From: Candidatus Thorarchaeota archaeon
GTDB lineage: Archaea; Asgardarchaeota; Thorarchaeia; Thorarchaeales; Thorarchaeaceae
Direction of reading: 5' to 3'
DNA: 10,481 nucleotides
Assembly: GCA_046758445.1 (NCBI GenBank)
Contig: JBHIAE010000078.1
Span: forward strand, 1 to 10,481
Translations under genes and position numbers: made by a program
The notes under the pieces: model-generated
The model's input: the letters and a program-made list of their open reading frames with translations, nothing else
The model's database searches: none
What the model was told of the DNA's origin: nothing
Shown here: positions 1 through 10,318 of the stretch, in pieces
Layout of the letters: each line of letters begins with the position of its first letter
Numbering within the stretch: the stretch's first letter is position 1

Positions 1-395
1 TATGCACTGCTCTTGGTAGCACCTATACCTGGGCTGCCATGTCTAACCTGTTTGTTGGTGGCACTGAACTCTCCAAGAACATGTCCAATCATCTGAGGGA
101 GTATCTTCACCTTGACGAATTCCTTGCCGTTGTGCACCCCGACTGTGAGGTCGACCATTTCAGGGAGAATGACCATGTCGCGACAATGGGTCTTTACAAT
201 GACATCTTTGCCTTTTCGGAGCTGTTTCCTAGCTGCTCTGAGCTTCATGAGGAGCTTTCTCTGTCTTGGTGGGAGGCTTCTCTTGAGAGTCCTTCTCCGA
301 CGTGTAGGGAGCAGCTCAATGAGCGAGTCCATGTTCATCTTGGCTAGCTCGGAAAGCTTGTGACCGCGATACATTGGTTCGCCTTTGCTCGACAT
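1..395 (-). CDS. rps19p: 30S ribosomal protein uS19 (archaeal S19P / eukaryotic S15 family), 3'-truncated by the window edge
   Basis: Manual translation from ATG at 395: MSSKGEPMYRGHKLSELAKMNMDSLIELLPTRRRRTLKR...IVKTHCRDMVILPEMVDLTVGVHNGKEFVKVKILPQMIGHVLGEFSATNKQVRHGSPGIGATKSSA. The KTHxRDMxILPEM, HNGK and MIGHxLGEF signatures are diagnostic. SD-like GGTGAT at 404-399. Absent from the ORF track because there is no stop codon in the window. Confidence 0.97.
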   Translation of the reverse strand, partial: MSSKGEPMYRGHKLSELAKMNMDSLIELLPTRRRRTLKRSLPPRQRKLLMKLRAARKQLRKGKDVIVKTHCRDMVILPEMVDLTVGVHNGKEFVKVKILPQMIGHVLGEFSATNKQVRHGSPGIGATKSSA

Positions 396-473
396 TAGAT
401 CACCAAAGATGGCATACCGAGTGGGACATGACCACTCAGAACGGGGCTCTGTCCATGAGGAGCGAATTTAAGG
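396..473 (-). promoter_or_regulatory. Putative rps19 promoter (CCTTAAAT, 473-466) and structured 5' leader
   Basis: TATA-like box directly after the TPR stop. The leader holds an 8-bp hairpin CUGAGUGG/CCACUCGG (439-417) and a weak UGCCA/UGGUG hairpin over the SD. Confidence 0.5.
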
Positions 474-1034
474 TTATCCATGTGGAGTCTCCTCTTCCCA
501 TGGAGTATTGGTCACATTTCCTTCCTCATCCATGTAGCCTGCCTTCTTCATGGCCTCAGGAACCCAATTGAGCGCGCCCTCTATGCCAGGGTCTCTTATC
601 AATGCCAATCTTGCAAGCTCTACAGCCTTCTCATACCTTTCCAACTCATAGTTGATCTCGGCCATGTGGAGGATTGCCAGCGGAAGCCTCTCTTCCACAT
701 CCACTGCAGCTTCGAACGACTCCAATGCGTCATCCAGCTGTCCGAGATCCCGAAGACAGACTCCTTTGTTGAACAATGGTACTGGGTCCTTTGGGTTCGA
801 GTCAGCCGCTTCGTCTAGCAACTGTAGGGCCTCAATAGTCAACCCTGAGTCTTTGGAGGGATTCTCCTGAGCATGAATCAATGCAACTGCAAGGGAAACC
901 TTCGCATCGGTGTGTTTTGGATGCTTCTCCAAGAAGGTTCTCAATGCACCCACAGCCGCTTCTGTCTTACCATCCGCGAGCAGCCTTGCCGCCTCTTGGT
1001 ACTCCTTGTTTCTCTTGCGTCCGAAGATTGGCAT
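474..1034 (-). CDS. Tetratricopeptide repeat (TPR) protein, ~186 aa
   Basis: TPR-like repeats (PLFNKGVCLRDLGQLDDALESFEAAV; AILHMAEINYELERYEKAVELARLALIRDP). Start moved from 1094 to ATG 1034 (MPIFGRK), which follows a GAGGT SD-like motif. Confidence 0.85.
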   Translation of the reverse strand: MPIFGRKRNKEYQEAARLLADGKTEAAVGALRTFLEKHPKHTDAKVSLAVALIHAQENPSKDSGLTIEALQLLDEAADSNPKDPVPLFNKGVCLRDLGQLDDALESFEAAVDVEERLPLAILHMAEINYELERYEKAVELARLALIRDPGIEGALNWVPEAMKKAGYMDEEGNVTNTPWEEETPHG

Positions 1035-1061
1035 TCTAACAACCTCTTCGGTCCCCCTCAT

Positions 1062-1080
1062 CAACACTCTTAAGTCGTTG
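1062..1080. promoter_or_regulatory. Possible shared bidirectional TATA-like element (CTTAAG at 1069-1074)
   Basis: Palindromic CTTAAG flanked by CAAC...GTTG, almost equidistant (~38 nt) from the two divergent start codons at 1034 and 1110. Confidence 0.4.
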
Positions 1081-1109
1081 CCTGGAACCAACACGCTACG
1101 GTGAAGTAA

Positions 1110-2468
1110 GTGGACCGTCTGTTTGGGACGAACGGAGTCCGAGGAGTCATCAACGAGAGTTTGACCGTAGAGATGGCGCTTGACCTAGGTAGGGCGGTTG
1201 GAACCATACTTGGACCAGGAATTGTTGCTCTCTCTAAAGACTCCAGGATGGGTGGTGGGATGTTCGTTAGTGCGGTCATTTCAGGATTACTCTCAACAGG
1301 CTGTTCTGTGATTGACATCGGACCAGCGCCCACACCAACTCTGCAGTTCATGATTCCGCGGCTGGATTGTGTTGGTGGCGTCATGATCACTGCTTCTCAC
1401 AATCCACCTGAGTTCAACGGAATCAAGGTGATGGGAAATAACGGAATCGAAGTGACTCGTGAGGTCGAATCTAGGATCGAAGCCTCATACTCAAGGAAGG
1501 ATTTCAGAGCCGCCGAATGGAGGAACATCGGAGTTGTACGCAATTATGACGGAGCAAACAGGGTCTACCTAGATGCTATCAAATCTCATGTCAATGCAGA
1601 GAAGATTGAAAGTCAGAACTTCAGAGTCGTTGTGGATTGCGCCAACAGTGTGGGATCACTGGCAACTCCTCAGCTCTTGAGAGAACTTGGATGCACGGTC
1701 TTCTCTCTGAATGCGCGACTGGATGGGAAGTTTCCTGGACGGGATCCAGAACCGACTCCTTCGAACTTGTCATACTTGTCACAGGTCGTCAAGTCGGTAG
1801 GTGCAGACATCGGTATCGCCCATGATGGCGATGCAGACAGAGCCACTTTCGTTGACGAGAACGGCCGGGTTCTATGGGGCGACCAGTCATTCGCGATTGT
1901 GGCATCGTATGTCCTTTCTATGATGAAAGGTTCTGTCCTTGTCACACCCGTGAGTAGTGGAAGACTGATTGAAGACGTTGCCAAAAATGCTGGAGCGAAG
2001 ATTGACTGGACGGTCGTAGGTAGTGTTGTGGTATCACATCGTCTTGAGGAAATCGGAGCTCAGCTGGGAGGAGAGGAGAACGGCGGAGTCTTCTATCCAC
2101 CACATCAGCCTGTTCGCGACGGTGCAATGACAGCTGTACAAGTTGTAGAGATTATGGCAGACAAGAAGAAGAAACTCTCCGAGCTAGTCTCTGAGCTGCC
2201 CCGCTACTTCAGCACAAAGAAGAAAGTTCCTGTTCCACATGAGAAAAAGGCCGCTGTCTTGGATGTTCTACTCAAACTATCGGAGGGACATCAGAGAATC
2301 ACAATTGATGGTGTCAAGTTGCTATATGATGAGGGCTGGGTCTTGATAAGACCATCAGGAACAGAGCCTCTTTGGCGATGTTTCTCAGAGTCTTCGACGC
2401 AAGCAGGAGCAGACAGACTGGCAGAACAAGGGGAGTCACTCATTAGAGAAGCAATAGCAAAGCTGTGA
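1110..2468 (+). CDS. Alpha-D-phosphohexomutase (phosphoglucosamine mutase GlmM / phosphomannomutase-phosphoglucomutase family)
   Basis: Motifs LFGTNGVRG, ITASHNP (phosphoserine loop), DGDADR (metal binding), GGEENGG and IRPSGTEP. GTG start follows GGTGA. GlmM versus PMM/PGM specificity cannot be decided by eye. Confidence 0.95.
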   Translation: MDRLFGTNGVRGVINESLTVEMALDLGRAVGTILGPGIVALSKDSRMGGGMFVSAVISGLLSTGCSVIDIGPAPTPTLQFMIPRLDCVGGVMITASHNPPEFNGIKVMGNNGIEVTREVESRIEASYSRKDFRAAEWRNIGVVRNYDGANRVYLDAIKSHVNAEKIESQNFRVVVDCANSVGSLATPQLLRELGCTVFSLNARLDGKFPGRDPEPTPSNLSYLSQVVKSVGADIGIAHDGDADRATFVDENGRVLWGDQSFAIVASYVLSMMKGSVLVTPVSSGRLIEDVAKNAGAKIDWTVVGSVVVSHRLEEIGAQLGGEENGGVFYPPHQPVRDGAMTAVQVVEIMADKKKKLSELVSELPRYFSTKKKVPVPHEKKAAVLDVLLKLSEGHQRITIDGVKLLYDEGWVLIRPSGTEPLWRCFSESSTQAGADRLAEQGESLIREAIAKL

Positions 2469-2480
2469 TCGGGGTACGAG

Positions 2481-3131
2481 CTATCGTGGCCAGAGTAATG
2501 CAGAAGCAGCCTGACTCACAGCGCCCTCTAGGTTCGATAGATACTCTAGAAGACGGCCGCTCTCCGCATCGCTCATCTCTCGAAAGCCTATGAATCTCTC
2601 AATCTCTTTGCCAACAATCCTCAACAAGATGTCCTGAGTGTCTTCTACGACCGTAACATCTCCCGACTGAGCAGCATTCACAAGTGATTCCAGATTGTTC
2701 AACAAGTGCTTCAGAGGTTCTATCTTTCCAAGCCGAAAAGGGCTTCTGAAGCCGATTACAACCAATGCCAAAGCGGTTCCGATTCCAACCGAAAGTAGGA
2801 GTGCTGTCATCATATGTACTCCGAAGTAGTACGCAACGCCTGCTTCTGCAGCAGAGAATCCAAGCGCCAATTCGTAGATGAGGAGGACACCCAGAGAATA
2901 GTCAATCAGCGTGAACAGATTCCATCTCATCGACAGCTTCCGGAGCAGTGACTCGCGTTCTTTGGCAATTCTAGCTGACTCATCATTCTCATATGGATAG
3001 ACAATCGGAAGGCGCCATGCTTTGTCAATTGATTTGCTGCTCTGTTTTGTGCTCAAGTAGATTAGGAGGAGTAGCATGAAGAATAGAAGAATGCGAACGT
3101 TTGTGATGAGCTCGACGTCGGGAGACTGCAA
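2481..3131 (-). CDS. Hypothetical membrane protein (~3 TM segments), ~216 aa
   Basis: Long ORF with hydrophobic stretches (RILLFFMLLLLIYL; LFTLIDYSLGVLLIYELALGF; MMTALLLSVGIGTALALVVIGF). Start uncertain: TTG at 3131 after GAGGGGT is preferred over 3233. Confidence 0.7.
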   Translation of the reverse strand: MQSPDVELITNVRILLFFMLLLLIYLSTKQSSKSIDKAWRLPIVYPYENDESARIAKERESLLRKLSMRWNLFTLIDYSLGVLLIYELALGFSAAEAGVAYYFGVHMMTALLLSVGIGTALALVVIGFRSPFRLGKIEPLKHLLNNLESLVNAAQSGDVTVVEDTQDILLRIVGKEIERFIGFREMSDAESGRLLEYLSNLEGAVSQAASALLWPR

Positions 3132-3283
3132 CAGACAAAGACCCCTCGTGGCCCACGAAAGGAGGAGGATATCAATCTGGTGCTCTACGCGGCATTTCGC
3201 ATAGGCGGAGCAGTGTATCAGGGTCGGTTTCAAGGATTGCTCAATCCGAATGGTATTAAACTGGATAGATTCGCGGTTTTCCT

Positions 3284-4705
3284 ATGTCGCAAGCCGTGGA
3301 AGAAGCTCCGATAGAGGTTACTAAGCCCAAGGACCGCGTGAAATACTGGCAAGTTGACGCGCTGAAGGCTTTTGCAATCGCTCTCGTAGTGTTGGATCAT
3401 AGTCTGACTTGGGAACTAAAGAGCCTCGTGGGAGGAGTCTTCTGGGAACGGACTGCCATCCCCATCTTCATGATCATAATGGGCTTCAATATAGGGCTCT
3501 CCTTCAAACATAGAGGTTTCACTACACTTCGGGAGCTCTATTCTTGGTCATATTGGAAGAGCAAGATTGAGAGGTATGTTCTCCCATTCCTCCTTCTATA
3601 TCTGGGTTCACTCCTTTTGGGAGTATACTTCAACTCAATCACATTCAATGAGTATTCTTTGATAGGGTGGCTTCCATTCTGGGGTCCAGGGAATTGGTTT
3701 GTTCCTGTTCTCTTCAGTTCAATACTTGTCCTCCCTCTGATCTATAGAGGATACATATCATATCCAAAGCTGACAGTATTCCTCTGCTTCATGAGTGAGA
3801 TTCTTCTACAGCTGTTCATGTTCTACAATGTCCCCTTGGTCCCTGTAGATGGCTTCTGGCAATTCCAGAGTTATGAGGCCGCATTCCTGAGCACCCTCAT
3901 AAGAACAAACGTGCTGTTTCTTCTGCCTGCTGTTGGCCTTGGACTATGGTTCGCAGATGGCCCCGAAATCACCGCGAAGCGAAATCGACTCATGGCAGTC
4001 GCCGTGCCTGCTAGCATCGTCTACATGTTCGCCTACCAAGTCCTTGGCTTCCGCGCTGAGATCATCGATGGAATCTACAAGTACAAGCTCATTTGGGGCG
4101 ACTACACCTTCTTGGTGATTCCGTACTCCGCTCTCATATTCCTCCTGGCGATGAAGTACTTGCCCTCAACACCATCGACTAGACTGCAGAAAATCATCCA
4201 AAGAGTAGGTAGAGCCAGCTACCATATCCTTCTCGTTCAGATATTCTACTACTCCATTTGGTACTTCTCCAATCCAAACTGGGCGAATGTGGGCTTCGGT
4301 TCGAACTATCTTTTCCATATCTGGTTCTACGTTGTCAGTCTGGTGCTGACGTTCGTCGTGGGAATAGTCTGGTACGAGGCCGAAAGAAAAGCATACAGAC
4401 GGAATAGGTCATATTGGAATCACACCTACGTTAGAAGAGCTGTCTATGCCACAGGTGCGTTCATGTCAATCGCGGTATTGGGTATGGCCATCGAGTTTGT
4501 CAGTGAGATTACAGGACTGAGAGAGTGGCAGCGAACCCACGGTCCCTTCTTCGTACTGGACCGGCCCACGGGACCGGGAGTCATTGCTAACATCATTGTC
4601 ATCATCATCATGTTGAGCATCTGCCTATTCTTCATCTACAAGACCTTCACGACTATGGATGAAGAGATACCCATTGAAGTGATCGAAGGGACAGCTATGG
4701 TGTAG
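3284..4705 (+). CDS. Acyltransferase-3 family (OafA-like) polytopic membrane acyltransferase
   Basis: N-terminal motif QVDALKAFAIALVVLDH, followed by AIPIFMIIMG, GNWFVPVL and VGRASYHILLVQ, with more than 10 TM helices. TATTAAA lies ~30 nt upstream of the ATG, suggesting a leaderless mRNA. Confidence 0.88.
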   Translation: MSQAVEEAPIEVTKPKDRVKYWQVDALKAFAIALVVLDHSLTWELKSLVGGVFWERTAIPIFMIIMGFNIGLSFKHRGFTTLRELYSWSYWKSKIERYVLPFLLLYLGSLLLGVYFNSITFNEYSLIGWLPFWGPGNWFVPVLFSSILVLPLIYRGYISYPKLTVFLCFMSEILLQLFMFYNVPLVPVDGFWQFQSYEAAFLSTLIRTNVLFLLPAVGLGLWFADGPEITAKRNRLMAVAVPASIVYMFAYQVLGFRAEIIDGIYKYKLIWGDYTFLVIPYSALIFLLAMKYLPSTPSTRLQKIIQRVGRASYHILLVQIFYYSIWYFSNPNWANVGFGSNYLFHIWFYVVSLVLTFVVGIVWYEAERKAYRRNRSYWNHTYVRRAVYATGAFMSIAVLGMAIEFVSEITGLREWQRTHGPFFVLDRPTGPGVIANIIVIIIMLSICLFFIYKTFTTMDEEIPIEVIEGTAMV

Positions 4706-4742
4706 AAGAACTGACCTTCTACTGTGTCATCTTCTGACAACC

Positions 4743-4783
4743 AAAATGAAGTGAGAGGGCCAATAGGCCCTGTCTTCGCTTCA
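4743..4783. terminator. Long hairpin between convergent 3' ends (probable terminator)
   Basis: Core AGGGCC-AATA-GGCCCT (4756-4771), extended by TGAAGTGA/TCGCTTCA (4747-4783). TTTT follows on the minus strand. Confidence 0.6.
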
Positions 4784-4804: not shown

Positions 4805-4897
4805 CTACTCTTCTGGCTTCGCCTCGGCAACCTCTTCCTCGTCGAAGTCAAAGTCCTCTAGGGGCTCTCGAGCAGGAGTGGTCAGCATGGTCCAGCC
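4805..4897 (-). pseudogene. Orphan duplicate of the last 30 codons plus stop of the DPM2-like gene
   Basis: GWTMLTTPAREPLEDFDFDEEEVAEAKPEE* versus GWTMLTTPAPEPLEDFDFDEEEVAESSPEE* (6303-6211): 27/30 aa and 68/90 nt identical. Confidence 0.9.
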
Positions 4898-4997
4898 GGG
4901 ACATTCCGCTCCAAGGACAGGCCGTTCTACAGATAGAAGGGTGGTCGCCAAGAGGGAAGGTAAGGGTCTAGTAGCAAAGAACGGCATCAGATGTCCC
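4898..4997. repeat. Nested inverted repeats at the left islet junction
   Basis: GGGACAT (4898-4904)/ATGTCCC (4991-4997) encloses GCCGTTCT (4921-4928)/AGAACGGC (4978-4985). Confidence 0.55.
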
Positions 4998-5727
4998 ACG
5001 GAAAGGGTCCCGGTCGTGTGGCCTCTTCCTTGGTCATCAGTCCTGAAAGACGAATAGGAATGACCCTCTCTCTGTCCTTGACCTCAATCTCAAGGCAGCC
5101 ATCCTCAGGCACATCCTTGTAGAAGCCATCTATAGACACAAACGGGCCGGTCAATCTAGATTCACGCTCATCCTGTCTTAGAATCTCGAACGCATACATC
5201 CCCTCCCTCGGGGGATCCTCCATGCCATATTCATGTAGTGTTTCGGGGAACACCCAGAACACCGAAACCCCGTAGACCTCTCCATCGCACTCAAACTTGA
5301 CTGTTTTGATGTGCACCCGCTCATTGTCTGCGAAGCCACCATACTCCTCTCCTTCAATTGCTCTTTTGAGATGCTCCAGAGAGAACTCTTGGACAGGATA
5401 CTGCTTCGGCTTGGGCTTTCTCTCCTTCTTCGCCTCCCAGTCGTGCCTCTCAAGTTTCAGCATGAAGTCCCATAGGTTAGCCCTCTTCACAAGACCAACG
5501 GCATCAAATAGGTCCTTCTCGACAACGCGTTTCCCCTCCGCATTGAGATTCGCCTGCTCCTTGGATGCGAAGAACTCCCAGACATCTTCCGTCTTGAATC
5601 CCCAGACTCTCGTACCCTTATTCAGTGGACAGTCACCATCAGGACGCCTTGTGAGGGAGCAATACCTGTCTTCCCAGAATTCGCAATGCTTGCATCGTAT
5701 GAAGCTAGACAGCTTATCGTCCCCCAA
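4987..5727 (-). CDS. Hypothetical protein with N-terminal Cys4 motif (C-x2-C-x7-C-x9-C), 246 aa
   Basis: Long ORF with soluble, charged composition and the motif CKHCEFWEDRYCSLTRRPDGDCP. TTG start with TTTACAAA ~27 nt upstream. No family recognised. Confidence 0.75.
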   Translation of the reverse strand: MGDDKLSSFIRCKHCEFWEDRYCSLTRRPDGDCPLNKGTRVWGFKTEDVWEFFASKEQANLNAEGKRVVEKDLFDAVGLVKRANLWDFMLKLERHDWEAKKERKPKPKQYPVQEFSLEHLKRAIEGEEYGGFADNERVHIKTVKFECDGEVYGVSVFWVFPETLHEYGMEDPPREGMYAFEILRQDERESRLTGPFVSIDGFYKDVPEDGCLEIEVKDRERVIPIRLSGLMTKEEATRPGPFPWDI

Positions 5728-5826
5728 TATGTGATGTTTCTTGAAGTTTGTAAATGTTGCTTCTACAGTGGGGTATGCCTGTCATCATAATGACTCTCCG
5801 CGACCTCCTCCATGAAGGCGACAAGT

Positions 5827-5849
5827 GTGTTCTGATGGGTGTTCTGATG
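5827..5849 (+). repeat. Tandem 11-bp direct repeat GTGTTCTGATG x2
   Basis: Exact copies at 5827-5837 and 5839-5849, immediately before ATG 5851. Confidence 0.8.
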
Positions 5850-5850
5850 A

Positions 5851-6018
5851 ATGCCTGAAAAGGTCGAGATTCAGAGGGGTGACCTCAGGGTTCAGGTCCG
5901 CCCGAAAGGATACAAGGACAAGGATATCCTGAAGGAGAAGCTCGACATACTTGAAGCTAGGATCCTTGAGTATATTGCCTCCCTGAAATCCAGTGAGGCC
6001 CTGCCTGACCTTAGATGA
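5851..6018 (+). CDS. Small hypothetical protein, 55 aa (below the ORF-track cutoff)
   Basis: MPEKVEIQRGDLRVQVRPKGYKDKDILKEKLDILEARILEYIASLKSSEALPDLR*. It has an amphipathic-helix pattern and protein-like AAG/GAG/GAC codon use. No clear SD. Confidence 0.5.
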   Translation: MPEKVEIQRGDLRVQVRPKGYKDKDILKEKLDILEARILEYIASLKSSEALPDLR

Positions 6019-6181
6019 ATGCGAGCTAGAGAGCATCTAGGAGCGCCTGTCTTAGCCGCTCCACATCGTCGACGCACTCGCCCCCAACTAGATAAGGCTA
6101 GTTGGGGATTCCATCTAAACCCGAACTGACCTCGACACTTCGTCAATCATTACCAGCTATCTCATAGAAAAGACATGCTGG
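5995..6181 (-). ncRNA. Candidate structured RNA (or folded ssDNA) with nested 3-way and 4-way junctions
   Basis: Six contiguous helices between 6011 and 6118 with no linker nucleotides at the junctions, an outer helix 5995-6000/6128-6133, and a further hairpin 6153-6181. G-U pairs favour the minus strand. Confidence 0.6.
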
Positions 6182-6210
6182 GGGAATCTGCTGCCACAAG
6201 CGTGCACGAA

Positions 6211-6549
6211 TCACTCTTCAGGACTTGATTCTGCGACCTCTTCCTCGTCAAAGTCGAAATCTTCTAGAGGTTCAGGTGCTGGAGTTGTGAGCATCGTCCA
6301 ACCAATCCATTGCGCAATCACCATAATCAAGACTGCCGCTGCCCAGACTGGTAGAATCAAGAGGAACATTGGATCGGGGTTAAGGATGTCATGCAGAAGA
6401 GTTCCGGCTCCGAACGTATCAGTGACCCACTGCTGCAATCCCGGTCCAGTGAGTCCATTTTGGAGCAGAACCAGTGCCCACGTGTAGTATATGAGCACCA
6501 AGAACGCGAAGATGAATATCAGTGCACCAAGTATCTTTTCTCTGCCCAT
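6211..6549 (-). CDS. Small two-TM membrane protein with acidic tail, DPM2-like (dolichol-phosphate-mannose synthase regulatory subunit-like), 112 aa
   Basis: Two TM helices (KILGALIFIFAFLVLIYYTWALVLL; MFLLILPVWAAAVLIMVIAQWIGWTML) with YYTW and LP motifs placed as I recall them in eukaryotic DPM2. ATG 6549 lies 8 nt after GAGGT, with TATA-like TTTTATGA at 6612-6605. The CDS is well supported; the DPM2 call is tentative. Confidence 0.7.
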   Translation of the reverse strand: MGREKILGALIFIFAFLVLIYYTWALVLLQNGLTGPGLQQWVTDTFGAGTLLHDILNPDPMFLLILPVWAAAVLIMVIAQWIGWTMLTTPAPEPLEDFDFDEEEVAESSPEE

Positions 6550-6653
6550 CGACAACTACCTCAATTGGCGTTTAATGGAACTAAGACGTTTACCGCAGCA
6601 CGTATCATAAAAGGATTGCGCAGGAACAAGAATTGCTCTAGAGTGCAGTTGAG

Positions 6654-7892: not shown

Positions 7893-8681
7893 ATGAAGAT
7901 CATTGTACCAGTGAAGCAAGTGCCTGAAGTGGCTGAAGTAAAAGTCAATGAGGAAACTGGAACGTTGATTCGTGAAGGTGTGCCCAGCATCCTGAACCCG
8001 TTCGATGAGTTTGCGGTCGAGGAGGCCATAAAGCTCAAGGAGGAGTATGGCGGCGAGGTCACTGTCATCACAATGGGTCCACCACAGGCCAAGGAAGCTC
8101 TGTGGAAAGCCCTGGCAATGGGGGCTGACAAAGCAGTCCACATGACAGATCGTGTTTTCGCAGGGGCTGACACATGGGCCACAGCATATACTCTTGCCCA
8201 GCAGATCAAGAAGATGGAGTTTGACTTGGTCATTTGTGGAAAGCAAGCAATCGATGGAGACACGGCACAGGTGGGTCCTGAGCTGGCTGAGTTGCTGAGT
8301 CTTCCTCAGATATGTTATGTACGTCATCTCGAGATTGCTGAGGGCGGGAAGCATGTCATAGCGCATAGGGAAACGGATGATGGCTATGACGTTGTTAGAG
8401 CCAGAATGCCTGTTCTACTCACAGCCACAAAAGGTCTCAATGAACCAAGACTCCCCAACATCATGGGAATCATGAAGGCCAAACAGAAGCCCTTGGAGGT
8501 TGTCGATGCAGCAACTCTTGGAGCCCCTGAGGATGAGCTCGGTCTAAAAGGGTCGCCCACAACGGTTCGGAAGGTGTTCCCGCCTATGAAGCGTGCTGGC
8601 GGAACGAAGCTTGAAGATGTAGACGCTAAGACTGCAGCCAAGCAGCTCGTCGAGTTCTTGGCAAAGAAGGGGGCGATCTAG
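7893..8681 (+). CDS. etfB: Electron transfer flavoprotein beta subunit (EtfB/FixA)
   Basis: Motifs MKIIVPVKQVP, NPFDEFAVEEA, GADTWAT, CGKQAIDGDTAQVGP, NEPR and GLKGSPT. Start corrected from 7740 to ATG 7893. Confidence 0.97.
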   Translation: MKIIVPVKQVPEVAEVKVNEETGTLIREGVPSILNPFDEFAVEEAIKLKEEYGGEVTVITMGPPQAKEALWKALAMGADKAVHMTDRVFAGADTWATAYTLAQQIKKMEFDLVICGKQAIDGDTAQVGPELAELLSLPQICYVRHLEIAEGGKHVIAHRETDDGYDVVRARMPVLLTATKGLNEPRLPNIMGIMKAKQKPLEVVDAATLGAPEDELGLKGSPTTVRKVFPPMKRAGGTKLEDVDAKTAAKQLVEFLAKKGAI

Positions 8682-8683
8682 AT

Positions 8684-9883
8684 ATGGGTCTAATCTATGA
8701 TAGAGATACGTGCACAGGCTGTATGCTATGTCCGAAGGTCTGCAACTTCGGGGCTATCGAAGAGGATGGTGACAAGGTAAAGTTCGACCTTGACCTATGT
8801 GTGCTCTGTGGCTCGTGCGAAGAGGTGTGCCCGGTTGATGCCATCGTTATTGAGCGTAAGGCTGTTGACAAGGTCAAGATAGCAGAGTACAGGGACGTCT
8901 GGGTGTTCTGCGAAACGAACGAGGGACGCCTACGCAGTGTTGCCTATGAGCTTGTGACAAAGGGACGCGAGCTTGCCGACAAGCTGGGCGAAGACGTTGT
9001 GGCAGTCTTAATCGGTCATGGAGTCGAGAGTCTAGCTGAATCACTGATCCATCAGGGTGCTGACAAGGTCCTTCTGGTTGACGACAAGATCTTCGGGCAC
9101 TACACTACTGATGCTTTTACAATTGCTCTGACTACGCTCATAGCTCCGAGAAAGCCCGCGATAGTCCTGTATGGGGCAACAAGCAACGGCCGCGACTTAG
9201 CACCGCGTGTTGCAGCAAGGATGGCACTAGGCCTGACTGCAGACTGCACCGGACTTGACATTGATGACGAACGGCAACTGGTACAGACACGTCCTGCGTT
9301 TGGTGGAAACATCATGGCCGAGATTCTGTGTCCCTACACAAGACCCCAGATGGCCACTGTCAGACCTAATGTGTTCAAGCCTTGTGAGCGCGACAGCTCT
9401 CGTAGTGGTGAGATTGAGAAGGTTGAGATAAAGATCGGCGCGAACCAGGTGAGGACGCGAGTCACTGATAGTGTGAGAGAGGTCGTTGAGGGCATGAAGT
9501 CAGTCGAAGAGGCTGATGTTGTGGTCTGCAGCGGACGAGGTATCAAGGACCCCTCCAATCTTGACCTGCCCAAACAGCTTGCTGACTTACTTGATGCAGC
9601 AGTTGGAGGCTCCCGACCCATAGTGGACCTGGGCTGGCTTCCACCGTCTCAACAGGTCGGCCAGTCTGGCCGGACAATCTCGCCGAAGCTATACTTTGCA
9701 CTGGGAATCTCTGGAGCGATTCAACATTTGGCTGGAATGTCTAGCTCCGACATTGTGGTTGCTGTGAACAAGGACCCTGATGCCCCAATCTTTGAGATTG
9801 CTGACTTTGGCATAGTTGGTGACCTATTCGAGGTCGTGCCAGCGATAATCGAGGAAGTCAAGAGAGTTCAAGCTGAGAGATAG
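8684..9883 (+). CDS. etfA: Electron transfer flavoprotein alpha subunit (EtfA/FixB) with N-terminal 2x[4Fe-4S] ferredoxin domain
   Basis: CTGCMLCPKVC and CVLCGSCEEVCP, then GRDLAPR, GLTADCT, TRPAFGG, QVGQSG, GISGAIQH and NKDPDAPIF. Confidence 0.97.
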   Translation: MGLIYDRDTCTGCMLCPKVCNFGAIEEDGDKVKFDLDLCVLCGSCEEVCPVDAIVIERKAVDKVKIAEYRDVWVFCETNEGRLRSVAYELVTKGRELADKLGEDVVAVLIGHGVESLAESLIHQGADKVLLVDDKIFGHYTTDAFTIALTTLIAPRKPAIVLYGATSNGRDLAPRVAARMALGLTADCTGLDIDDERQLVQTRPAFGGNIMAEILCPYTRPQMATVRPNVFKPCERDSSRSGEIEKVEIKIGANQVRTRVTDSVREVVEGMKSVEEADVVVCSGRGIKDPSNLDLPKQLADLLDAAVGGSRPIVDLGWLPPSQQVGQSGRTISPKLYFALGISGAIQHLAGMSSSDIVVAVNKDPDAPIFEIADFGIVGDLFEVVPAIIEEVKRVQAER

Positions 9884-9901
9884 GTACAACGGTGCTCTCC
9901 A

Positions 9902-9921
9902 GCAAGAGAAACTGCTCTTGC
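9902..9921. terminator. Hairpin between convergent etfA and Lrp/AsnC genes
   Basis: GCAAGAG-AAACTG-CTCTTGC, a perfect 7-bp stem. Confidence 0.45.
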
Positions 9922-9947
9922 ACAAGACCATTGAAATGGGAACTCTC

Positions 9948-10172
9948 TCAAATGGCGATCCAGGTCTCAGTACTGACGACCCCTTCTATACTGTGGATCA
10001 TCTCCAGCAAGCGTTTCAAGTCGTCAGTTGAGGGAAGACTAACGAGGGCCACTAGATCATATGGACCGGTGATCACATGAACATCTATAACTCCCTCGAT
10101 ATTCTCGATGTCACTTCGTACGTTCCACATCGTTCCTGCCTTTGCACGAATCAGAACATACGTTCTCTTCAT
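9948..10172 (-). CDS. Stand-alone Lrp/AsnC ligand-binding (RAM) domain protein, 74 aa
   Basis: MKRTYVLIRAKAG...IEGVIDVHVITGPYDLVA...IHSIEGVVSTETWIAI. Carries the TGxYD motif and has no HTH. Start corrected from 10394 to ATG 10172 (GGAGA upstream). Confidence 0.92.
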   Translation of the reverse strand: MKRTYVLIRAKAGTMWNVRSDIENIEGVIDVHVITGPYDLVALVSLPSTDDLKRLLEMIHSIEGVVSTETWIAI

Positions 10173-10318
10173 CTGTGGTTTCTCCGTCAAGCATGCTTGG
10201 TGCACTGAATAGTAGTCCCGGGTGAGGATAAATGCTTCATCCAAGAGCCCCAGTCCATGAAACATGCAAGCCAGGAGGTAGGTCGAGTTTTCGGAATGCT
10301 GAATAAGGTTTCCTGCGC

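Follow-up and report, generated by a model that had tools for sequence, protein, structure and literature searches.

Homology-facilitated illegitimate recombination (HFIR) is documented in bacteria and has been proposed as the source of the orphan 3′ ends seen at Rhs and T6SS loci (PMC5361080). In the Rhs, CdiA, and T6SS displacement arrays, the incoming DNA finds its anchor in a conserved stretch of the resident gene, its far end is joined without homology, and the old 3′ end is pushed downstream; no integrase takes part, and the process is recurrent and brings variable cargo (PMC5361080). Integrative elements can produce a similar arrangement. The e14 element and phage 21 supply the icd gene of E. 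coli with a mostly synonymous alternative 3′ end and leave the displaced native end as a pseudo-copy (163 bp, against 93 nt at the locus described below), and e14 carries an integrase, is flanked by defined homologous attL and attR sites, and restores icd when it excises (PMC6379469, citing Hill et al. 1989). The cis-mobilizable elements (CIMEs) and decayed ICEs of streptococci are small integrase-less cargo islets (1.2-13 kb) bounded by gene-3′-end repeats; the att sites of CIMEs have stayed functional and match exactly those of resident ICEs or IMEs, with one of which a CIME usually stands in tandem (PMC7563491).

Here we describe a locus of a Candidatus Thorarchaeota archaeon at which the end of a gene for a small membrane protein has received, probably by recombination, about 1.42 kb of DNA from a related species. 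The window, that is, the whole stretch of DNA that was analysed, is a contig of 10,481 nucleotides (JBHIAE010000078.1 of assembly GCA_046758445.1; C78 below). The locus is a tail-displacement scar and bears no sign of an integrase-driven element. Its architecture is that of the known replacement-end and tail-displacement scars, so that it forms no new category but an archaeal member of an existing one. The features are as follows, with native or imported origin as assigned by sequence comparison:

3284 to 4705, plus strand: Acyltransferase_3 gene (Pfam), the convergent left neighbour
4747 to 4783, minus strand: terminator-like hairpin followed by TTTT, native and part of the original gene end, conserved with the orphan
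4805 to 4897, minus strand: orphan, the displaced native 3′ end, 30 codons and a TAG stop with one P-to-R change, matching the relative G010
4898 to 4986, minus strand: distal insert end, its last 12 nt imported-like
4987 to 5727, minus strand: ORF246, an orphan gene that is intact and has a Cys4 motif near its N-terminus; the insert's only whole gene, with a paralogue on contig C19
5827 to 5850, no strand: tandem 12-nt duplication (GTGTTCTGATG twice), exactly where fam2 homology stops
5851 to 6018, plus strand: relic of a fam2 ("277-aa family") gene, last 55 codons, convergent on the gene tail and matching a C-terminus in G007
6026 to 6079, minus strand: relic of a "fam9" small gene, last 17 codons (ECVDDVERLRQALLDAL and stop), matching the 3′ ends of small ORFs
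6080 to 6210, minus strand: imported spacer 3′ of the new stop; it contains a T-rich stretch as well as a perfect 10-bp hairpin (6082-6107) and is without counterpart at empty sites
6211 to 6319, minus strand: imported replacement 3′ end, now the working tail (about 35 codons and TGA), unlike sampled relatives
6320 to 6555, minus strand: native 5′ part of the gene for a small two-TM "DPM2-like" membrane protein, 94% identical to G010

The likeness to the Rhs, CdiA, and T6SS arrays extends to an apparent anchor in a conserved part of the resident gene, a far joint without homology, an old 3′ end pushed downstream, the lack of an integrase, recurrence, and variable cargo. Unlike in those arrays, the new tail here encodes the same peptide and nothing is diversified; the targets are ordinary genes rather than toxin genes, the host is an Asgard archaeon, and the two joints are unusually close. 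To our knowledge, HFIR has not been shown in archaea, and we know of no description of HFIR-type tail displacement in Asgard archaea. The mostly synonymous replacement end is shared with e14, but the locus has no integrase and no core, has lost 12-16 native bases, and holds a patchwork insert of 1.4 kb. Like a CIME it is a small integrase-less cargo islet bounded by repeats of a gene 3′ end, but it has neither a resident partner nor att identity.

The tail duplication is far beyond chance, since a self-tblastx search gives E = 4e-16 for the pair. When the two are compared codon by codon on the minus strand (4808-4897 against 6214-6303), 11 codons are identical, 16 differ synonymously, and 3 differ in the encoded residue (R/P, A/S, and K/S); the longest identical run is of 14 nt, and the stop codons are TAG in the orphan and TGA in the intact gene, which reproduces exactly the comparison made in the preliminary description of this DNA. 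The copies, which encode the peptides GWTMLTTPAREPLEDFDFDEEEVAEAKPEE and GWTMLTTPAPEPLEDFDFDEEEVAESSPEE, agree at 68 of 90 bases, and third codon positions hold 19 of the 22 differences. The repeat extends 12 nt past the limit first reported (4898-4909 against 6304-6315, 8 of 12 bases identical). The heavy synonymous divergence reflects the service of each tail as the working end in a different species. The target gene itself scores E = 0.0046 and 17.6 bits against Pfam DPM2 (PF07297), below the gathering cut-off of 27.3, and a few of its homologues bear precomputed PF07297 or PF08510 labels.

Sequence identity and a tree of the tails both identify the orphan as the native gene end and mark the working tail as foreign. 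The orphan is identical to the tail of G010, the nearest species, at 88 of 93 bases (95.7% by blastn) and pairs with it in the tree, and on a contig of X4, a metagenome run of another study that contains a relative, the orphan-type tail is contiguous with the gene body. In G012 and G006 (87%), as well as in X4, the hairpin at 4747-4783 is conserved along with the orphan. Upstream of about 6320 the gene body is back at the native level, 94% to G010, and 6320-6375 is identical to the X4 relative. The working tail has an ending of the genus type; against 12 genes from the same genus, only 69-75 of its last 93 nt are identical, and it stands alone on a long branch in the tree. Of 120 clusters of the family, no other shares its AQWI and ESSPEE variants. 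No donor lineage emerged: among the 87 genomes of the order the best match to the imported tail is at most 84% identical, and no protein cluster carries AQWI or ESSPEE. The preliminary description had taken the orphan for the displaced native end and the insert for the source of the working replacement, and had looked to a nucleotide tree to identify the native copy; identities and tree agree with it on both points.

It had also predicted that relatives would have the gene directly convergent on the acyltransferase gene, and this is the arrangement in G010 and X4. The X4 contig joins 4898 to 6320 via 15 native bases and is about 95% (94-96%) identical on both sides of the empty site; a 30-nt loose end of this contig matches none of the loci compared. 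G007, which together with G010 is the closest species, has an assembly that breaks inside the locus. The gene is present in 77 of the 87 genomes of the order, and the second tail occurs only in this one. These comparisons show that the insertion took place recently, at an age of less than about 5% sequence divergence.

The same comparisons, together with the assemblies, bear on whether the locus might be an artefact in which two strains were assembled into a chimera, or else a duplication in situ, with old tandem copies or paralogues diverging where they stand. In favour of this reading, the source is a metagenome-assembled genome and the locus lies at a strain-variable border. However, in each of three samples one contig spans 4300-6900, at depths of 13-29, and the three agree base for base across both joints with zero differences, the low-share runs X5-X9 forming no part of this evidence; the shared runs of sequence, at most 14 nt, are too short to mislead a k-mer assembler, and the scar of the C94 type occurs independently in G007. 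As for divergence in place, the 26% difference between the tails cannot have arisen there, because a relative that is 94-96% identical has an empty site, and all other genomes have a single copy. We reject both versions as effectively refuted and regard this reading as extremely improbable. Neither the chimeric assembly nor the two full-length ancient paralogues against which the preliminary description had warned is seen at a locus that is identical in three samples and single-tailed in the other genomes.

The joints are non-conservative. The working gene switches in frame from native to foreign sequence at about 6312-6319, in register and within homology; the far joint, at 4897/4898, is apparently without homology and lies 12-16 nt away in recipient coordinates. 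The 12-16 native bases at the joint are missing, and the sequence ATA GCT ATG TGG ATT (15 nt), present in X4 and G010, is in neither copy. The borders share no core, and neither joint fits the form expected of attL (B-O-P′) or attR (P-O-B′). No recombinase was found in the insert or in the 10.5-kb contig (Pfam, PHROGs, and PADLOC on insert ORFs), and the preliminary description is borne out on the lack of both a recombinase and an identical border core. There are no terminal inverted repeats at 4898/6319. A transposon, IS, or casposon was rejected as a candidate, there being no TIR, no TSD, and a loss rather than a duplication of native bases.

The reading that we favour, with a probability of roughly 0.55, is that the host's own recombination found its anchor in the conserved gene end and that the other end was joined illegitimately, as in HFIR. 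DNA of a congeneric species of Thorarchaeota would have entered the cell, carrying the orthologous small membrane-protein gene and then accessory genes. One incoming end would have paired with the highly conserved last part of the recipient gene, with an in-register crossover at about 6312-6319, and the other, without homology, would have been joined illegitimately inside the recipient tail at 4897/4898, so that 12-16 native bases would have been exchanged for about 1.42 kb of foreign DNA. The gene would thus have gained a synonymously diverged tail from the donor, and its native tail, together with the terminator, would have been stranded downstream as a dead fragment. We infer the route of DNA entry, as well as the origin of the second joint by illegitimate end-joining and not by inheritance from a donor that already carried the duplication.

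The interior of the insert is a patchwork of two truncated gene ends and the intact ORF246. The fam9 relic matches the 3′ ends of small ORFs at C19:48733-49053 and at about 9507-9686 of C12 (blastn, 83% over 35 nt, and translation). The fam2 relic is 58% identical in amino acids and 83% in nucleotides to the C-terminus of G007:C454:2471-3304, and the family has six full copies elsewhere in the genome; the duplication at 5827-5850 is an internal rearrangement joint. ORF246 has only 4 representatives among 1.8 billion proteins and a 35% identical paralogue at C19:47798-48559, a locus at which no tail duplication was found. It has no match in Pfam, PHROGs, or PADLOC (only a sub-threshold Dicty_CAD in Pfam); ESM Atlas comparison gave TM scores of at most 0.33, and a Foldseek search of the PDB with its AlphaFold model (pLDDT 68) returned nothing at E <= 0.001, the predicted structure matching no recombinase-like fold. 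A search of the viral, metagenome, and genome collections with ORF246 found no related loci. In composition the insert equals the host genome (GC 0.511 against 0.494 +/- 0.02; tetranucleotide distance at the 64th percentile of genome windows), which, like the genus-type ending of the imported tail, points to a related archaeon as the probable donor. In the 87 genomes of the order that were searched, no second copy of the insert was found and no cargo match beyond an 88-nt fam2 stretch in G007.

These contents weigh on the idea that the locus is the remnant of an integrative element, or a non-autonomous one, whose attP brought the replacement 3′ end and whose tyrosine or serine recombinase was later lost or acts in trans, as for a CIME. 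The replacement 3′ end does come with the insert, the native end has been displaced, and the site is empty in relatives, an architecture like that of e14 in icd (PMC6379469) and of ICEs and CIMEs in the 3′ ends of fda, rpsI, and rpmG (PMC7563491). The cargo consists of orphan genes, the joints lie within 16 nt of each other, and the genome has two tyrosine-recombinase genes (PF00589), both of them elsewhere (C34 and C52). Against this stand the non-conservative joints, with no identical core and 12-16 native bases gone, the lack of a recombinase in the insert or contig, and the truncated members of chromosomal paralogue families that make up the interior. This genome holds no other copy of the tail or insert DNA, and the contig has no element next to the locus; a duplicated tail is seen in none of the other 86 genomes, their only cargo match being the fam2 stretch, and nothing similar was found in viral, metagenome, or genome collections. 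With less than about 5% divergence since insertion there has been little time for erosion, and integrase loss would be required at five loci with different cargo. We therefore consider such an element unlikely. The preliminary description had preferred it in the form of a provirus that has eroded or of a non-autonomous element mobilised in trans, possibly by way of a structured single-stranded intermediate, a view that is not supported in light of the state of the joints, the missing recombinase and insert copies, the host-like composition, the mosaic of chromosomal-family genes, the end folds, which are not significant (see below), and the four further scars in the same genome.

Those scars speak for host recombination anchored in gene ends. 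Loci on C12, C10, C8, and C94 have the same architecture, with repeats of 75-147 nt that are 71-80% identical, empty sites in relatives, unrelated cargo, and no recombinase, so that there are at least 5 loci of this type in the 3.25-Mb genome. Recurrence with unrelated cargo and no recombinase argues for a general host recombination route. At C8 the start of the foreign tract lies upstream of the repeat border by about 135 nt, which is what a homologous crossover of variable position would lead one to expect. C78 and C8 have a native orphan; in C10 it is foreign and the working tail native, a polarity that a simple one-sided anchor does not predict and that counts against HFIR. So does the spacing of the joints, since a random illegitimate join would fall within 12-16 nt of the anchored one in only a few percent of cases.

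The 12 nt beyond the orphan border (4898-4909, GCGGAATGTCCC) resemble imported GCGCAATGGATT (8/12, p about 0.003) and not native GCTATGTGGATT (4/12), which hints that the incoming DNA already had the repeat at both ends. It is conceivable, though improbable, that a recombinase-free cassette with its own homology arm was acquired, the tail-cargo-tail arrangement having pre-existed in the donor and having been transferred by two-flank homologous recombination or by loop-out between its direct repeats and re-entry via one Campbell-type crossover in the conserved tail of the orthologous gene. The imported-like 12 nt would then look like a donor orphan copy that was partly carried over, the foreign tract in the working gene starts 0-4 nt from the extended repeat border at 6315, and both polarities would be explained by which donor tail pairs or by the crossover position. 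Moreover, a fam9/fam2 module follows the imported tail in the same order at two target genes, those of C78 and C12. On the other side, the 12-nt stretch matches neither parent exactly (TCCC versus GATT), no donor with the duplicated structure was found, contig-level data, which are ill suited to reveal one, show no circular form, and the origin of the first duplication is pushed back and left unexplained. A broader and rather doubtful suggestion is that conserved gene tails serve as portable homology arms in Asgard archaea, accessory genes moving between species on the last 75-150 nt of a conserved neighbour gene by host recombination alone; the route might run via loop-out circles and Campbell-type re-entry. 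If so, such arms would amount to a recombinase-free cassette system that provides a measurable share of gene gain.

The locus is a concrete and datable example of gene gain in an Asgard archaeon, probably without a mobile-element enzyme. If the process is general, such scars would offer a simple sequence signature by which recent inter-species recombination and gene gain could be counted in uncultured archaea. They also call for caution in annotation, as a replacement gene end with an orphan copy is by itself no basis for calling a provirus or integrative element.

The preliminary description had further remarked on secondary structure. The hairpin after the orphan is present, and TTTT follows it on the minus strand, but its stability does not exceed that of shuffled sequence (z = -1.6), and the claim that both insert ends are folded finds no statistical support (z = -0.5 and -1.6). 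The perfect 10-bp hairpin at 6082-6107 does exist. Scans of the window for Rfam families and tRNAs gave no match.

The adjoining DNA has been exchanged as well. The Acyltransferase_3 gene belongs to a glycan-type cluster whose alleles are swapped among species: it is 75% identical to that of G010, yet the G010 and G004 genes are 95% identical, against genome backgrounds of 86-90% and 70-76%. The locus is a recombination border, with allele swapping in the adjoining glycan genes, and in G006 a different gene, of 422 aa, occupies the same gap.

The two 3' ends of the DPM2-like gene in the Thorarchaeota genome (G000) flank an insert, and the features are arranged as follows.

4805-4897, minus strand: orphan, the displaced copy of the 3' end
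4898-6319: insert, about 1.4 kb
4987-5727, minus strand: ORF246, the one whole gene of the insert
5851-6018, plus strand: small ORF, the last 55 codons of a gene of the 277-aa family (fam2)
6029-6079, minus strand: last 17 codons of a small gene of the fam9 type, 8 bases from the stop of the preceding ORF
6211-6319, minus strand: working tail, the 3' end of the intact DPM2-like gene
Left neighbours (Pfam): phosphoglucomutase/phosphomannomutase (PGM) gene, uncharacterised 250-aa gene, Acyl_transf_3 gene
Right side (Pfam): small membrane-protein gene, aldo/keto reductase gene, two ETF genes

The codon comparison in the preliminary description was reproduced in full, with 11 identical codons, 16 synonymous and 3 non-synonymous changes, TAG and TGA as the respective stop codons, and a longest shared run of 14 nt. 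Third codon positions hold 19 of the 22 differences, and the repeat extends 12 bases further with 8 of the 12 identical. The tails differ by 26%, a divergence that could not have built up at this locus; they evolved in different species, in each of which the tail was the working end of the gene.

The window is a complete contig of a 3.25-Mb assembly (113 contigs, 92.7% complete), and its DNA is present in hydrothermal-vent metagenomes. The organisms named as sources of its protein homologues also fit a Thorarchaeota (Asgard) archaeon. An assembly artefact was considered and rejected, as three per-run assemblies agree and the copies lack a long identical run. In each of three samples, which were assembled separately although they are perhaps the source of the genome, one contig spans 4300-6900 with zero differences at a depth of 13-29, and the runs shared between the copies are too short to mislead a k-mer assembler.

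Which of the two tails is native? Of 87 genomes of the order, 77 carry the DPM2-like gene, and 13 of 16 same-genus genomes have it in single copy; a second tail occurs only in G000. Over its last 93 nt the orphan matches G010, one of the two closest relatives, at 88 positions and G012 and G006 at 84-85, whereas the working tail matches every genus member at 69-75, which is under the lowest within-genus value. Identity of the gene to G010 returns to 94% upstream of about 6320, and genome-wide identity is 86-90% to G010 and G007 and 70-76% to G012, G004 and G006. In a tree built from the 66 most conserved bases, the orphan groups with G010 and the working tail forms a solitary long branch; support is weak, as a 66-nt alignment would be expected to give. 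Taken together, these comparisons show that the gene body, right flank and orphan are native, as had been proposed for the orphan, and that the working tail is imported.

The empty site predicted in the preliminary description was seen in G010, where the gene is directly convergent on the acyltransferase gene with no DNA inserted between them. Run X4, of an unrelated study, has a contig in which 15 bases with the native codons ATA GCT ATG TGG AT connect window positions 4898 and 6320. The insertion is younger than about 5% divergence, because the identity of this contig to the window is about 96% on the side of the orphan and about 94% on that of the gene. The sequences at the joint are as follows.

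Native: GTC ATA GCT ATG TGG ATT / GGC TGG ACC
Working copy: GTG ATT GCG CAA TGG ATT / GGT TGG ACG
Orphan: ...GGA GCG GAA TGT CCC / GGC TGG ACC

The native 12-16 bases are missing from both copies; therefore, about 15 nt were exchanged for about 1.42 kb. The CAA (Gln) codon of the working copy is unique; Met occupies this position in 110 of 120 family clusters.

An integrase-type element, the mechanism first suggested, shares its replacement-end architecture with e14/icd (PMC6379469) and with CIMEs (PMC7563491), but the defining features of both are absent from the window locus. The joint is not of the conservative type that an integrase would give, domain annotation of the insert (Pfam, PHROGs, PADLOC) found no recombinase, and the insert ends fold no better than shuffled sequence. 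Such an element is therefore not supported. The scar fits best with a general host-driven route, homology-facilitated illegitimate recombination (HFIR), in which incoming DNA would pair by homology within the conserved gene end and its far end would be joined without homology. HFIR is documented in bacteria and has been suggested as the origin of orphan 3' ends at T6SS and Rhs loci (PMC5361080). The observation is real and was correctly described, and the scar is of a known kind in a new host. The simplest model does not account for the 12 bases upstream of the orphan, which are closer to the imported than to the native version. A recombinase-free cassette with both repeats already present in the donor would account for these bases, for the closeness of the joints to each other and for orphans of either polarity (native or foreign), although we consider it unlikely.

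A scan of G000 for gene tails with a nearby repeat found four further loci with the same architecture.

C12:8309-10195 (L063:3310-5196): 142-aa zinc-ribbon gene (9767-10195, minus strand); cargo, fam9 and fam2 genes
C10:26195-29492 (L070): 557-aa gene; cargo, TPR protein
C8:25033-28238 (L071): 118-aa gene; cargo, 859-aa protein
C94:23-2210 (L072): EamA transporter gene; cargo, 380-aa protein

The repeats at these loci span 75-147 nt with 71-80% identity. Empty sites are seen in relatives in every case (seven same-genus genomes at C12; G010 at C10, C8 and C94), and G000 shares the C94 insertion with G007. At C12, the last ~35 codons of the target recur at 8309-8407 with 68% amino-acid identity, and between the copies lie a small fam9 gene and a complete fam2 gene, ordered like the window relics. 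The orphan is the native copy at C8 (96% to G007), where the foreign tract starts about 135 nt upstream of the repeat border, and the foreign copy at C10 (75% versus 88.8% to G010 for the working tail). Comparison of the loci found no common border motif, and no recombinase was found among their cargo genes.

Within the insert, ORF246 is a genuine but nearly orphan gene, with one paralogue in G000 (35% identical), two remote relatives among 1.8 billion representatives and no match in a structure-based fold search. The fam9-type small gene accompanies fam2 at C19 and C12, and a 12-nt tandem duplication sits at the break of the fam2 relic. The insert is thus a patchwork, truncated internally at least twice; in GC content and tetranucleotide usage it matches the host genome. 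The multi-junction RNA structure initially proposed at 5995-6133 proved to be two convergent gene-end relics and a perfect 10-bp hairpin (6082-6107), and 6066-6215 folds no better than shuffled sequence (z = -1.6).

The gap between the acyltransferase and membrane-protein genes differs among genomes, being 175 nt in G010 and holding a 422-aa gene in G006 (L029, G006:C12, 4945-6213, between the acyltransferase and DPM2-like genes). The glycan-type genes to the left (window 1-4755, compared with G010, G004 and G007) have been exchanged among species by allele swapping. The acyltransferase genes of G010 and G004 are 95% identical, yet their PGM genes are only 76% identical; the G000 copies reach at most 79% identity to any sampled genome, and the X4 contig also diverges left of 4755.

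Fam2 (~290 aa), which has no Pfam match, also follows fam6 (a 420-520-aa multi-TM protein) in a sporadic, expanded gene pair. G000 has six full copies (loci include C66:6629-8998, C19:48965-52424, C82:3726-7013, C13:18-908 and C18:54010-54855) and G007, G008, G018 and G023 a few; 36 other relatives yielded no copy of the pair. A 160-nt stretch is 85% identical between C12:9526-9686 and C19:48749-48908, although the adjoining fam2 proteins share only ~25-30% identity. The product of this stretch is a small acidic protein (..LVEW.S.EFDE...ACLSILE...ESYPK..CVEDVERLR); its gene is convergent on fam2, and the last 17 codons of that small gene are those kept in the window at 6029-6079. Downstream of the pair on C82, two adjacent small paralogous genes (2805-3679; 125 and 154 aa) encode candidate profilin-like proteins, judged by eye.
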